A stretch of DNA of 40,202 bases from a virus. A program made the position numbers. The first letter of the stretch is position 1, and each line of letters starts with the position of its first letter. Shown here in pieces: positions 12,001 through 18,000 of this stretch. The stretch lies in UHGV virus genome UHGV-0358046; one strand, written 5' to 3'.

Positions 12001-15000
12001 AAGCTGGAAATTGTGCTTGATGCTCAGGAAATTGAAATGCTGGAGCGTAACTGTGCCACGCGTCGCCCCGGGCGTGCGCCTTACGAATTTGGTGAGTATA
12101 TAGCGTTACTGATCCGCCAGGATGATGCACGCGTGCGCGGGCGTATAAAATCGATCAGCAGAAAATGTTGCGGTAAGTGCGGCGAGAGAGTTCCAGTTAA
12201 TTCATGCCCGTGTAATGGTGACTCGCAATGCTGGGTGACTAAAGGCTGGCATGAAACGAAATTAATAGCGTGACATGTCACGAGTAGATTATGCATGATG
12301 AATTTGATGGGTTTTGAATACTGCCGCCAACTATGGCGGCTTTATTTTGCATGGTACTATTACCACAACGGTAACTATTACCACGGTGGTTATGATGCCT
12401 GCTGAACCTAAAACCTATAAACGCAAATCAACGCAATTTAAGCCACTAACAGCAATGCAGGAGGCTTATTGCCAGTCATACATCAAAACGCCTGAAAACC
12501 AGACTCAGGCAGCGATTAACGCAGGATTCTCCCCAAATACAGCGGCAGTTAAAGCCAGTGTCATGATGCGCGATGAACGCATTCAAAAACGCATTGCCGA
12601 GTTGATGGAGGAGCGCAACAAACGAATGCGCGTCAGTGCTGATTACGTTCTCATGCGCCTGGTGGAGATCGACCAGATGGACGTGATTGATATCCTCAAC
12701 GACGATGGGAGCCTTAAGCCAATCCGCGAGTGGCCGAAAATCTGGCGCACTACGCTTAGCGGCTTTGATCTGTCATCGACCATCATGAACATGAACGAGG
12801 ATTCGATAGAGACAATCCTCAAAAAAATTAAATGGCCTGACAAGGTGAAGAACCTCGAACTGATTGGTAAGCACGTCGACGTCAACGCATTCAAAGAACG
12901 CCTGGATGTTAATGTGAATGTGACAATTGCTGATCGCATAGCGGCAGCCAGGAAGCGACTCAAAGAACGTCAGGATGGTAATCAGTGACAGATGCAGCGT
13001 TATCTCCTGAAGAGCAGTTAATCGAAGATATTGCAGGGTTCACTCACGATCCGCTTGGCTATGCCCTCTATGCGTTCCCGTGGGGGGAAGAGGGTACTGA
13101 ACTGGCACATGCCACCGGTCCACGTCAGTGGCAGGCCGATGCGTTCCGAGAGATACGTGATCACCTGCAGAATCCAGAGACGCGATATCAGCCGCTTATG
13201 CTGGCACGTGCTTCTGGTCACGGTATTGGTAAATCCGCATTCATCTCAATGCTGATCAACTGGGGCATGTCCACTTGCGAGGATTGTAAGGTCGTGGTGA
13301 CCGCCAACACCGACAACCAGCTACGAACGAAGACCTGGCCGGAAATTATCAAGTGGTCAAACCTTGCTATCACGAAAGACTGGTTTACCTGTACCGCTAC
13401 CGCGATGTACAGCAATGACCCTGGGCACGACAAGCGGTGGCGAGCTGACGCAATCCCCTGGTCTGAGCACAACACTGAGGCATTCGCCGGACTACACAAC
13501 GAGCGTAAACGCATCATCGTGGTATTTGATGAAGCGTCGAACATTGCGGATCTGGTGTGGGAAGTTGCCGAGGGTGCGCTAACGGACGAAGACACTGAGA
13601 TTATCTGGGTGGCTTTCGGAAACCCTACACGTAACACCGGGCGTTTCCGTGAATGTTTCCGCAAATACAAACACCGCTGGAAAACTGCGCAGATTGACAG
13701 CAGGACGGTGGAAGGCACCAACAAACAGCAGTTGCAGAAATGGGTTGATGACTACGGGGAAGATAGCGACTTCGTTAAAATCCGTGTGCGTGGCATATTC
13801 CCTGATGCATCTGAATTGCAGTTTATCCCTACCGGTCTTACTGACGAGGCAATGAAACGGGTGGTAACCGCTGCGCAGGTTGCACATGCTCCGGTGATAA
13901 TCGGCGTTGACCCGGCATACTCCGGCGTTGATGACGCTGTGATATACCTGCGGCAGGGGCTACACAGTAAGGTGCTGTGGACTGGCAACAAGACTACCGA
14001 CGATCTGATTATGGCGAAGCGTATCGCTGACTTTGAAGACCAGTATCAGGCTGACGCGGTGTTCATCGACTTCGGTTACGGAACCGGTTTGAAGTCAATC
14101 GGTGACGGCTGGGGTCGTACATGGCAACTTGTTCCGTTCGGTGGCGCGTCTACTGACCCGCAGATGCTTAACAAGCGTGGGGAGATGTTCAACTCATGCA
14201 AGACATGGCTGAGGCTCGGCGGCATGCTGGATGACCGGGAAACAGCGGACGACCTGTCGACGGCAGAGTACAAAGTTCGCGTGGACGGTAAAATCGTTAT
14301 CGAACCGAAGGAAGATATCAAAGAGCGACTTGGGCGTTCGCCGGGGAAAGGCGATGCGCTATTGCTGACGTTTGCTTTCCCGGTCTCGAAACGCATAAAT
14401 ATACCAGGACAGCAGAACCAGCAAGGCAAGGCCATCACAGATTACGATCCCTATGCTTAATCCGCTAGTGGGGATAATGTCGTTGATATCCTCTGATGAG
14501 GATAAAACAAAGCCAGCTCATCGGCTGGCTGTTTGTGACATGTCACGGTGTTACTTAATGGCATCAAATCCAGCGTTGATGGCTTCCACAATATTGATGG
14601 CACTTGTTTTATCGAAGTGCCCATTCTGAATAAGCGCCGCATGCAGGCATTGTAACTTCATGTTGTATAAGTGTTCGCTCATGTAATCATTATCACTTTT
14701 TGCTTTAGCGTAAACAGCGCGAGAAATATCAAACACATCGCCTTTTTCCATTTCAGAACGTTGTGCTGTTATCCAGTCATGGAATGTAACGCTAGTACCA
14801 TGGTCTTCGCTAAGAGTTAACCCGGCCAGTCCCTCACTCTGAATTACTTCGTAATGCATTTCATTACCAGCAAAAACGCCATAAAAAACGCAGTCTTCAG
14901 CCTGAACGATACGAGAATATTTTAATGGCCATTCATTTAGATACTTAGCCAACATATCAATTGTTTTCATGATCTCACCTTAAAAAAATGCCCGGCGACC

Positions 15001-18000
15001 CGGGCGAACTGGAAGCAATGAGTTATGCCTTCCGTGGCTGTACTGGTTTACAGCATGAAGTCATCGCAATGGCGTCCTGCTGTAAAAAGGGCGGTAATAG
15101 TCCTTCAAGGGAAACTATCACCGCCAAGCACCTGGAACTTCTGGCATCACGGTCCTTAGGCGTGATTCTGGCGTGGCATGCAGGATTCGAACCTGCGACC
15201 AACCGCTTAGAAGGCGGTTGCTCTGTCCAACTGAGCTAATGCCACAACGCTGAGAGCACTTAGCCTGTTAAGGCGCCACACTTTGTCGCGGCTCCATAAA
15301 TGCTCTCATCGTTGTACCCTCGTCTCTTCCGAGGCGTCACACCGAATCGCCGGGATGGTGAATCCCCGTGCGCGGAATAAAACCGCTCGACTTGCACATT
15401 CCGGCTACCTGGTTCGTTTGCCCGAGCAAGGGAGGGTGCCCCTTAAACGTATCCAGACCGCTATCGGCGCATGTGCCATACGCCGTACTGCTCAAAATAA
15501 AAGCTCACTCCACCTGTTCAATTTAACGACAAGCCAGTCAGGTTAATAACCGGAATGAACCATTTGCTTACCTGAAAGGTAATAATTAGTGCGTTAAATG
15601 TCAACTATCTACGATAAATAAATCATATGTGGTTAAATTGGTAATAATTTAATTTCGTACGGAGTCATTGATATGTGCATGGGTAGCTCACCGTCAGTGC
15701 CTGCAACACCAGAAGTTCAGGCAGCACCACAGGAGCAGGATGCCGCCGTTGTTGATGCCCGCGACGAAGAAACTCGTCGCCGTCGCGCTGCTGCTGGTCG
15801 TAGTTCTACGCTGCTTACCGGTTCTCAGGGTGACACATCAACCGCTAATACCAGCGGTAAAACGCTGCTTGGTCAGTAACCGGAGTCATTGAAATGGCGG
15901 AAACAACTAAAGAGCGATTGAACAAACAGTTCGCACAACTTGAAAGCGAGCGTCAGTCGTTCGAGCCGCACTGGCGCGAGTTGAGTGATTACATCAACCC
16001 GCGTGGTTCCCGCTTTCTGACTTCTGAGGTTAACCGTAACGATCGACGCAATACACGCATTATTGATTCGACCGGGACTATGGCGGCGCGCACTCTTGCC
16101 AGCGGCATGATGTCAGGCATAACAAGCCCCGCCCGTCCGTGGTTTCGCCTGGCTACGCCAGATCCTGAAATGATGGACTATGGCCCTGTTAAGTTGTGGC
16201 TTGAGGCAGTTCAGAACCGCATGAACGATATGTTCAATAAGTCGAATCTCTACCAGTCTCTTCCGCAGTTATACGGAAGCCTCGGCACATACAGCACTGG
16301 TGCAATGGCGGTGCTGGAGGATGACGAGGACATCATTCGCACAATGCCATTCCCGATAGGCAGTTACTACCTGGCTAACTCACCTCGTGGCAGTGTGGAC
16401 ACCTGTTTTCGCAAGTTCTCTATGACTGTTCGTCAGCTTGTTCAGGAGTTCGGGCTAAATAACGTCAGCGAATCCGTAAAAAGCATGTGGGAAAGCGGCA
16501 CCTACGAGAAGTGGATTGAAGTGATGCATTCGGTTTACCCGAACATTGACCGCGATACATCGAAGCTGGATAGCAAGAACAAGCCATTCAAATCGGTTTA
16601 TTACGAGGTTGGTGGCGATAACGACAAGTTGTTGCGTGAGTCCGGATTCGATGAGTTTCCAATTATGGCTCCGCGCTGGGAAGTTAACGGCGAAGATGTT
16701 TATGGATCATCATGCCCGGGTATGCTGGCGCTTGGACCTGTTAAGGCATTGCAGCTTCTCCAGAAGCGCAAGTCGCAGTTGATTGATAAAGCCACCAATC
16801 CGCCGATGGTTGCTCCGACTTCCCTCAAGAATCAGCGTGCCTCCCTTCTTCCTGGCGACATCACGTATATCGATCAGATTACTGGTCAGGATGGTTTCAG
16901 GCCTGCTTATCTGGTTAACCCCAGTACAGCAGATTTGGTGGCAGACATTCAGGACACTCGTCAAATCATTAACAGCGCCTACTTTGTCGATCTGTTCATG
17001 ATGTTGCAGAACATCAATACCCGCTCGATGCCTGTTGAAGCGGTGATCGAAATGAAAGAAGAAAAACTTCTGATGTTGGGGCCGGTTCTGGAGCGTCTGA
17101 ACGACGAATGTCTTAATCCTCTCATTGACCGCTCTTTCTCGATGATGGTGCGTAAAAACATGCTGCCGCCACCGCCAGACGTGATGGAAGGTATGCCCCT
17201 GAAGGTCGAATACATTTCCGTCATGGCTCAGGCGCAGAAGTCTATCGGCCTGTCCAGTCTGGCGTCCACGGTTAACTTCATTGGTCAACTTGCGCAAGCG
17301 AAACCAGAAGCTCTCGACAAACTCAACGTTGATCAGGCAATCGATGCATTCGCTGATATGTCCGGAGTGTCTCCAACCGTCATTGTTCCGCAGGAACAGG
17401 TTGAGCAGGCTCGCCAGCAACGGGCACAGCAGCAACAGCAGCAACAAATGATGGCGATGGGGATGGCGGCGGCACAGGGTGCCAAGACGCTAAGCGAAGC
17501 TAAAACTTCGGATCCGAGTGTTTTGTCAGCTATGGCGAATGCAGTTAGTGGTCAGGGTGGGCAATCACAATGACAGATTACGAAGACGATCAACTGAAAG
17601 AAGAAAACGCCCGTAAGCAACGTGACATGGCACAGCGTGAAATTGATGACATTCGCTTTGTCATGAGCAGTGAACAGGGGCGTCGCGTTGTCTGGTCGGT
17701 GCTGGAGAAAGGCCGTGTGTTTTCTGCTATCTCACCGATGGACGCTATGGCTATGGCATTTAATGAGGGGCAACGCAATCTGGCGCTGGAACTGTTTCAG
17801 CGCGTTATGGCGCATTGCCCTGAACAGTATTTGAAGATGGCCAAAGAGGCCAGTGAACAGGAGTGATCATGAATTTATTTGAGCGTTTGCTGTATCGCCG
17901 TCTTTGCAATGAGCAACCAGTCGATGGTGGAGCAGCTCCGGCTGCGTCAGAACCGTCAGCGCCTGCAGGTGATAACCCTGCTCCAGTTGGTGATCCATCA

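Follow-up and report, generated by a model that had tools for sequence, protein, structure and literature searches.

Between the large terminase gene (12985-14460, plus strand) and the portal (head-tail connector) gene (15894-17573, plus strand) of the virus genome UHGV-0358046, analyzed here over its whole stretch of 40,202 nucleotides (nt; the window), the opposite strand carries a gene for a 139-amino-acid (aa) protein of the family phrog_4846, a tRNA-Arg(UCU) gene and a series of structured RNA elements. With slightly better than even confidence, we consider this region to be one leftward accessory unit in which a slot swaps coding sequences, and the 139-aa protein most likely to serve counter-defense, because the same slot in relatives mostly carries sponges for immune nucleotide signals. 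The window represents an epsilon15/phiV10-like temperate podophage, or a prophage of that kind, of the genus Uetakevirus. New here are the definition of the slot with a census of its cargo, a widespread unannotated RNA of about 190 nt heading the unit, and the modular nature of the phrog_4846 family, the gene itself being already annotated publicly, without function.

The edges of the slot are exact. In a blastn comparison with phiV10, homology stops at 14553, in the stop codon, and resumes at 14970, at the start codon, so that only the coding sequence differs. The cargo gene (14551-14970, minus strand) is preceded by hairpin 2 (14982-15005, minus; GCCCGG GUCG CCGGGC A U7), in which a stem of six G-C pairs (15005-14990, -12.3 kcal/mol) is followed by A and T7 (14988-14982) and which marks the upstream edge of the slot. 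The ribosome-binding site (RBS) and ATG (14968-14981, minus) lie directly 3' of it, with AAGGTGA at 14981-14975 abutting the U7, just as the first-pass annotation had described, and the ATG at 14970. The downstream edge is terminator 3 (14511-14530, both strands, -11.5 kcal/mol). A terminator after the 139-aa gene had likewise been proposed, and the hairpin at 14530-14511 (minus) is one that the gene has in common with the terminase gene on the plus strand; it is taken to be bidirectional because the phiV10 record assigns it to the terminase gene as a plus-strand terminator. We collected 120 further loci from IMG/VR by an invariant leader motif and identified in each the gene that follows the U-run. 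The frame of hairpin 2, U7, RBS and ATG upstream and the bidirectional terminator downstream is conserved in more than 120 related loci, and in the phage alignment RBS and ATG are common to most cargo types. These comparisons show that the DNA from the ATG to the terminator is a gene-exchange slot. In empty slots (L016, L022, L058, L076, L101, L110 and L113), which are either deletion remnants or the ancestral state, the RBS and ATG lead through a 7-codon open reading frame (ORF; MKYEFDGF) straight into terminator 3.

Our census counts the first cargo in 93 loci with a recognizable terminase gene, the slot proteins of which fall into 24 clusters, a few being short and probably spurious ORFs; some slots are empty. 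PF13876 (Acb4) is the commonest cargo (32 of 93 loci), followed by a 201-296-aa membrane/coiled-coil protein (18/93), phrog_4846 (16/93), a 146-aa Cys-rich protein (5/93), a 173-aa Tad2-like protein (4/93), a 91-98-aa Tad2-like protein (3/93), an Acb2/Tad1-hairpin protein (1/93) and several singletons. The slot proteins of phiV10 and epsilon15 (121-123 aa) match PF13876 at 6e-35 and 4e-37, the Tad2-like occupants match PF11195 in Pfam (4e-26 and 3e-24) and the Acb2/Tad1-like occupant matches PF24729 (3.6e-17); in PAS61 and HEMP4 the slot protein is of the phrog_4846 family, like that of the window. PF13876 is the Acb4 family of sponges directed against the cyclic oligonucleotide-based antiphage signaling system (CBASS), PF11195 is Tad2, and Acb2 and Tad1 likewise act as sponges, taking up cyclic oligonucleotides and glycocyclic ADP-ribose (gcADPR) (bioRxiv 10.1101/2024.12.30.630793, 10.1101/2025.07.12.664507).

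At least three unrelated sponge families use the identical RBS in sister phages, and we therefore read the slot as a counter-defense position, by association and not by proof. The locus has what distinguishes a counter-defense hotspot, namely variable genes at a fixed position, conserved flanks and exact slot edges. The second commonest cargo, the 201-296-aa protein (phrog_13369; L008, L034, L013, L015, L044 and others), consists of an N-terminal membrane segment and a long coiled coil, carries its own TATAAT promoter right after the U-run together with the phage-operator palindrome TTACCTTAAAGGTATAAT, and gave no match in Pfam or PADLOC. The slot can serve as a filter for counter-defense candidates, among them phrog_4846, the 146-aa Cys-rich protein, the 201-296-aa membrane/coiled-coil protein and several singletons. 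A limited literature search found no published description of this slot.

The window's own cargo, the 139-aa protein, is acidic (isoelectric point 5.09, 20 D+E against 12 K+R) and matches the PHROG profile phrog_4846, of unknown function, along its whole length (E = 7.3e-89, residues 1-139 against profile positions 1-139 of 140). About 100 homologues were found, all in Enterobacteriaceae and all unnamed, and an exhaustive profile search added a few more, down to 30% identity. Compared with a 65%-identical copy, the gene differs at 32, 40 and 75 sites in codon positions 1, 2 and 3, and this third-position excess, together with the roughly 100 full-length homologues, marks the ORF as a real gene. 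Substitution patterns show moderate constraint on the coding sequence; between near-identical copies, silent changes are no commoner than amino-acid changes, though the numbers are small. In INPHARED the family is carried by Uetakevirus phages only, and the same terminase and portal genes also flank a homologue that is 37% identical over its alignment; the family appears to be tied to the slot. It had been proposed that this is not a morphogenesis gene, and an accessory gene whose coding sequence is exchanged among relatives agrees well with that view.

Searches for a known family gave a uniform answer. The 139-aa protein matched no Pfam family at E<=1, nor did its separate domains, the stand-alone C-terminal module or a 201-aa extended form; neither the protein nor its separate domains matched PF11195 (Tad2) or PF24729 (Acb2/Tad1) at E<=10. 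It matched 0 families of PADLOC-DB at E<=0.01, its profile found none of the PDB sequences at E<=10, a fold comparison returned no matching entry, and pairwise BLASTP with Acb4 (PF13876) aligned a 29-residue stretch only. The first-pass annotation had called the product an acidic protein of unknown function, and profile searches and structure prediction leave that description standing.

The predicted structure is nevertheless informative about how the family is built. AlphaFold2 with a deeper alignment (mean predicted local distance difference test score, pLDDT, 81.9) gives an alpha/beta N-terminal domain (residues 1-75, pLDDT about 90), a disordered linker (76-92) and a helical hairpin (93-137). 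The C-terminal module, with the consensus KSDxDYxxEHLYNMKLQCLHAALIQ...INAGFDAIK, is reused elsewhere: behind another N-terminal domain in Tyrion and others, by itself in proteins of 61-64 aa, and extended at its C-terminus by about 60 aa. Tyrion (L005 1501-1674) shares the last ~46 codons of the cargo gene (14551-14700, minus) and has an unrelated N-terminal domain. The DNA shared with Tyrion spans 14514-14688, which places one exchange boundary inside the cargo gene and points to domain shuffling within the slot.

Transcription of the unit probably starts at a candidate leftward promoter at 15568-15604 (minus), with the -35 element TTGACA (15604-15599), a 17-nt spacer and the -10 element TACCTT (15581-15576), the latter lying inside an operator palindrome, TTACCTGAAAGGTAA (15568-15582). 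The window contains 14 copies of the palindrome TTACCnnnnnGGTAA, where 0.66 would be expected (at 136, 6215, 6277, 6989, 7037, 9276, 9338, 12360, 12378, 15568, 32720, 32821, 33868 and 34248). Pairs of it stand on both sides of a CI-like helix-turn-helix (HTH) repressor gene (6352-6933, minus), and further single or paired sites are found before the small terminase gene, gp3/portal (15568-15582) and the tailspike gene and around a Bro-N antirepressor gene, which suggests that one repressor gates many separate operons. In the GenBank record of epsilon15 the homologous site is a repressor operator. TTGACA and the operator are kept in epsilon15, Tyrion, SPN9TCW and a Klebsiella phage, with a spacer that varies; the operator is present in 110 of 114 loci and the full promoter pattern in 79 of 114. 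Neither a scan nor inspection by eye found a sigma-70 promoter in the interval from hairpin 1 to the ATG or immediately ahead of the tRNA. We infer from these patterns that a repressor-controlled leftward promoter drives the unit and that the unit is early or induction-time rather than a moron expressed from the prophage; the repressor operator that overlaps the sole conserved promoter argues for expression at infection or induction.

The first element behind this promoter, ahead of the tRNA, is the structured RNA of about 190 nt (15299-15485, minus; at least seven helices). It is present in 31 of 31 diverse representatives, whether or not they have the tRNA; epsilon15 keeps only its first hairpin. 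Near-invariant blocks (CGGCGUAUGGCACAUGCGCCG, GGUAGCCGGAAUGUGCAAG, a YUCACCA loop and CCUCG-GAAGAGA-CGAGG) are separated by covarying helices. When pairs were counted on RNAalifold structures, 98.6% of cells were paired in 15 Uetakevirus sequences, against 28-43% in slid controls, with 7 pairs double-changed, and 0 of 500 shuffles reached the observed value; 17 sequences across phage families gave 98.4% (slid controls 31-42%) with 37 double-change cells. In the cross-family shuffles, 0 of 500 reached the observed paired cells, double-change cells or covariation score, and 5 of 500 the double-change pairs. The last hairpin alone reads CCUCG/CGAGG, CCUGG/CCAGG or GCCGG/CCGGC across families. The RNA is assigned to the minus strand because many G-U pairs fit only that strand. 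It is single-copy in the window, has no Rfam match at E<=1 in any context, bears no annotation in RefSeq or GenBank records, and is not described in papers on the Uetakevirus phage vB_EcoP_ZX5 or on Pas small RNAs (sRNAs).

Copies of this RNA extend well beyond Uetakevirus. They occupy 2462 places in 1831 of 5426 complete E. coli genomes (about one third), 548 of them on plasmids. In phage P1 (L155 2501-2669) the RNA lies between tRNA-Ile and ban in the C1-controlled ban operon, which also contains two other tRNAs, about 2.3 kb downstream of Pban. Stx2-converting, cdtI and e14-like lambdoid prophages have it at the nutL/putL position, about 50 nt downstream of a promoter (TTGACA...TAATGT) that follows the CI gene terminator; other copies are at L153 3501-3696, L156 3001-3187 and L145 3930-4123. 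In one lambdoid prophage the flanks are those of the window, and a ~115-nt insert that is not called as a tRNA (L153 3741-3850, GTGGTAATCC to CCCCACCAC) stands at the tRNA position, which may be exchangeable too. On the 3' side of the insert follow a hairpin-1 homologue ending CUUUUUACA, a long hairpin, a terminator-like hairpin and the first early gene. A strict terminator scan downstream of the RNA in lambdoid and P1 contexts found none; by eye, weaker terminator-like hairpins were seen in one lambdoid prophage. The RNA may bear on how temperate phages lacking N pass early terminators.

Between the tRNA and the slot, the minus strand carries two further hairpins upstream of hairpin 2. Hairpin 1 (15080-15125) has a 14-bp stem followed by CUUUUUACAG (stem 15125-15090, 14 pairs, tail CTTTTTACAG, -20.1 kcal/mol) and forms a terminator-like end of the tRNA segment; in two lineages another terminator is fused at the shared TTTACA. 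Hairpin M (15047-15086; UUUACAG...CUGUAAA) has a minimum free energy of -12.2 kcal/mol. The region contains four terminator-like sites against 2.2 +/- 1.3 in shuffles, a count that is not significant by itself. Hairpins 1 and 2 are nevertheless accepted as real because they are conserved with compensatory changes, both in an alignment of eight phages (E. coli, Salmonella, Klebsiella and Enterobacter) and in RNAalifold on 19 non-redundant leaders, where several G-U pairs fit the minus strand only; hairpin 2 covaries at two stem pairs, GCCCGG/CCGGGC becoming GCCCAC/GUGGGC in 8 of 19 sequences. The terminator-like elements proposed at 15083-15125 and 14982-15005 are thus both found there, conserved and covarying. 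With a G+C-rich stem-loop followed by a U tract, hairpins 1, 2 and 3 all have the form of intrinsic terminators and are predicted to act as such.

Hairpin M is of a different kind. Its stem covaries (AU to GC in 8 of 19 and 3 of 19 sequences) and its apical segment, GCCAUUGCGAUGAC, is unchanged across eight independently chosen phages; it therefore probably serves as a site recognized by a protein, by RNA polymerase or in processing. The GCCAUUGCGAUGAC loop is also complementary, with two mismatches, to the RBS/start region of the portal gene (15885-15898). Antisense regulation of the portal gene was rejected as a general mechanism, and the match is probably due to chance, since the complementarity is confined to the E. 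coli clade and is absent from epsilon15, SPN9TCW and Klebsiella phages despite the invariant loop. Thermodynamic models also predict pairing between the CGCCU motif of the tRNA 3' trailer hairpin (ATCACG...CGTGAT; 15146-15166, minus) and the Shine-Dalgarno sequence AAGGUG (14975-14981) about 170 nt downstream. Such pairing, of 5-8 bp, is predicted in several diverse relatives, including the tRNA-less Tyrion; we give it little weight because the complement is short and does not covary.

Several points weigh against counter-defense under repressor control as an account of the unit. The slot-mates (Acb4, Tad2-like and Acb2/Tad1-like proteins) lend strong circumstantial support to the earlier proposal of an anti-defense or host-modulating gene, but the 139-aa protein itself has no match to known anti-defense families, and its acidity contrasts with known sponges, whose pockets are often basic. 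Some occupants of the slot have no obvious link to anti-defense, namely an HNH endonuclease in one Pseudescherichia prophage and membrane proteins, and the loci, drawn from prophage collections, include some redundancy. The -10 element TACCTT is weak, and we infer the promoter, its timing and the terminator read-through alike. Finally, two strong terminators (-20.1 and -12.3 kcal/mol) stand between the sole conserved promoter and the gene, so that expression should drop sharply, which would be odd for a sponge that needs abundance. On balance, the 139-aa protein is best read as uncharacterized anti-defense cargo and, by association only, as a good candidate for a new immune-signaling inhibitor.

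The cargo could be expressed by leaky read-through of both terminators, by read-through that the 190-nt RNA might promote in the manner of HK022 put (PMC9378689), or after processing that leaves hairpin 2 as a stabilizing 5' end; papers on vB_EcoP_ZX5 and Pas sRNAs contain no expression data for this unit. The second of these routes is the strongest of the rival explanations: the 190-nt RNA would act in cis as a put-type element of processive antitermination, or as a sensor, with which polymerase reads through hairpins 1 and 2 so that tRNA and cargo are both expressed from the repressor-controlled promoter. The covariation of the RNA in repressor-controlled early operons of three phage families speaks for this, as does its place just downstream of an early promoter in Uetakevirus and lambdoid prophages; in the lambdoid prophage with the hairpin-1 homologue, that homologue, the long hairpin and the terminator-like hairpin all follow the RNA at the nutL/putL position, and put RNAs are known to act in this way (PMC9378689). 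However, the 190-nt RNA is about three times longer than put, with which it was compared in position, size and helix number, the strict terminator scan was empty downstream of it in lambdoid and P1 contexts, and epsilon15 has its first hairpin only, yet keeps a cargo gene. We regard this mechanism as an unlikely, if still serious, contender.

The operator bears equally on whether the cargo works in the lysogen. The ORF might be a lysogenic-conversion or superinfection-exclusion moron, i.e., a defense gene expressed from the prophage to the benefit of the host, and its orientation antisense to structural genes, with terminators on both sides, is the classical moron layout; the phage, which has an integrase and a CI-like repressor, is temperate, and some alternative cargo consists of membrane proteins. 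This is rather less plausible, given that there is no promoter at the gene, that the unit promoter and the promoter of the 201-296-aa cargo both carry the repressor operator, that the identified slot-mates are counter-defense sponges and not defense proteins, and that PADLOC gave no match. The term "moron" used in the first-pass annotation is doubtful in its strict sense, since no promoter lies directly at the gene and the conserved one overlaps the operator.

Very little speaks for the remaining proposal, that hairpin 2 with its U7 is an attenuator or riboswitch expression platform in which a ligand or a translating ribosome selects terminator over antiterminator: a canonical terminator does abut the RBS and conserved RNA structure does lie upstream, but hairpin 2 pairs with a probability of 0.93-0.99 in all modelled transcript contexts with no competing antiterminator predicted, neither of its arms has a conserved complement (the arms covary and nothing upstream follows), the segment from hairpin M to hairpin 2 is deleted in PAS61 and L037, hairpin 2 persists before empty slots and before promoter-carrying cargo, and no Rfam riboswitch matches, so that the claim made for the terminator at the RBS finds no support and is highly improbable. 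Given its firm pairing, the dispensable segment upstream and its retention at empty slots and promoter-bearing cargo, hairpin 2 behaves as a fixed terminator and slot boundary, not as a switch.

In the accessory-unit model that we prefer, transcription would start at the conserved TTGACA promoter and, because the -10 element lies within the repressor operator, the unit would be silent in the lysogen and switched on by infection or induction. The transcript would contain, in order, the 190-nt RNA, tRNA-Arg(UCU), hairpin 1, hairpin M, hairpin 2, the fixed RBS with its ATG and the cargo. Hairpins 1 and 2 would be terminators that insulate and dose the unit, with cargo expression depending on read-through, and recombination in the conserved flanks would swap the cargo coding sequence. 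Within the 139-aa protein, the variable N-terminal domain would provide specificity and the shared C-terminal helical hairpin oligomerization or docking. A bolder version would make the region a self-contained, repressor-gated counter-defense operon whose 190-nt leader is a new class of cis-regulatory RNA (a put-like antiterminator or a sensor) that licenses read-through of the two terminators and so confines production of the tRNA and of an exchangeable inhibitor of immune signals to infection or induction, with phrog_4846 as a new modular anti-defense family and the same RNA controlling early operons of P1 and of lambdoid prophages without N. We put this version forward as speculation, with doubts much like those attached to a prophage-expressed defense gene; if it were true, the 190-nt RNA would govern early operons in prophages of about a third of complete E. 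coli genomes.

According to ARAGORN, the tRNA gene (15169-15245, minus) encodes tRNA-Arg with the anticodon UCU (TCT), which reads AGA; its CCA end is encoded in the sequence. The Rfam tRNA model RF00005 scores 73.3 bits there (gathering score 29, E = 1.4e-15), so that both methods agree with the gene first proposed at these positions. The same tRNA-Arg(UCU) is already annotated in phiv142-3, SPN9TCW and the O157 typing phages, and by the Prokaryotic Genome Annotation Pipeline (PGAP) in E. coli genomes. It is found in 81 of 122 related loci irrespective of cargo type; in epsilon15 and Tyrion it is missing, through deletion or replacement, with the remaining unit intact. A count on a crude gene set gave AGA as 11% of Arg codons in the window phage, or 6.85 per 1000 codons, about three times the average of E. 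coli K-12. The AGA-reading function suggested earlier is in keeping with this fairly frequent use; the tailspike gene has 17 AGA codons and the 139-aa gene has 0. The tRNA thus plausibly supplies AGA decoding to the AGA-rich tail and tailspike genes, the ordinary reading being codon supply for late genes.

Megablast with 14400-15900 found HEMP4 (95%), PAS61 (91%), phiV10, TL-2011b and the O157 typing phages. Of 5426 complete E. coli genomes, at least 114 contain the 1.5-kb segment at >=80% coverage, with "tRNA-Arg" and hypothetical proteins annotated there by PGAP; Uetakevirus prophages are common in E. coli, and direct genetics is therefore feasible. The window also contains a gp3-like small gene (15673-15879, plus) and an integrase gene (193-1443), and the integrase together with the CI-like HTH repressor identifies the phage as temperate. 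An 83-aa ORF on the plus strand (14988-15239), recorded as coding sequence PhiV10p04 in phiV10 (L001 2045-2296), overlays the tRNA and the conserved hairpins. As a gene or small peptide it is probably a spurious call, since it overlaps the tRNA and its frame is not conserved.

Several known systems resemble parts of this unit. The tRNA genes of phiv142-3, SPN9TCW and the O157 typing phages are the identical gene in the identical place; there is no difference, and this part was already known. Hairpin 1 and the bases preceding it resemble the 3' stem and terminator of the sRNA DicF (RF00039), and the P1 ban operon has an annotated "dicF-like region" (L155 269-370) beside its tRNAs and the 190-nt RNA. 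By contrast, the match of hairpin 1 to the DicF model (15089-15136, minus; E = 0.69) reaches 18.5 bits, far under the gathering score of 48, and six related loci gave no DicF match at E<=1; an identity with DicF was rejected on both counts. The 190-nt RNA is like HK022 put RNA and lambda nut in where it stands, soon after an early promoter under repressor control and before terminators. It differs from put, which has about 70 nt and two stem-loops, in having about 190 nt and at least seven helices.

The 139-aa protein shares with the sponges Acb4 (PF13876), Tad2 (PF11195) and Acb2/Tad1 (PF24729) the same slot in sister phages and the small size of these phage proteins, and fusions of independent modules also occur among sponges (bioRxiv 10.1101/2024.12.30.630793, 10.1101/2025.07.12.664507). 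It differs in matching none of them by sequence (E<=10) or fold. The closest parallel for the slot itself is provided by the phage accessory regions, or counter-defense hotspots, of Silas et al. (bioRxiv 10.1101/2023.04.06.535777), which are likewise described as short, highly variable gene positions between core genes and enriched in counter-defense. Here, by contrast, a single coding sequence is exchanged within an invariant frame running from terminator, RBS and ATG to a second terminator. The position is in a temperate phage, on the strand opposite the flanking terminase and portal genes, and a tRNA and a structured RNA come before it.

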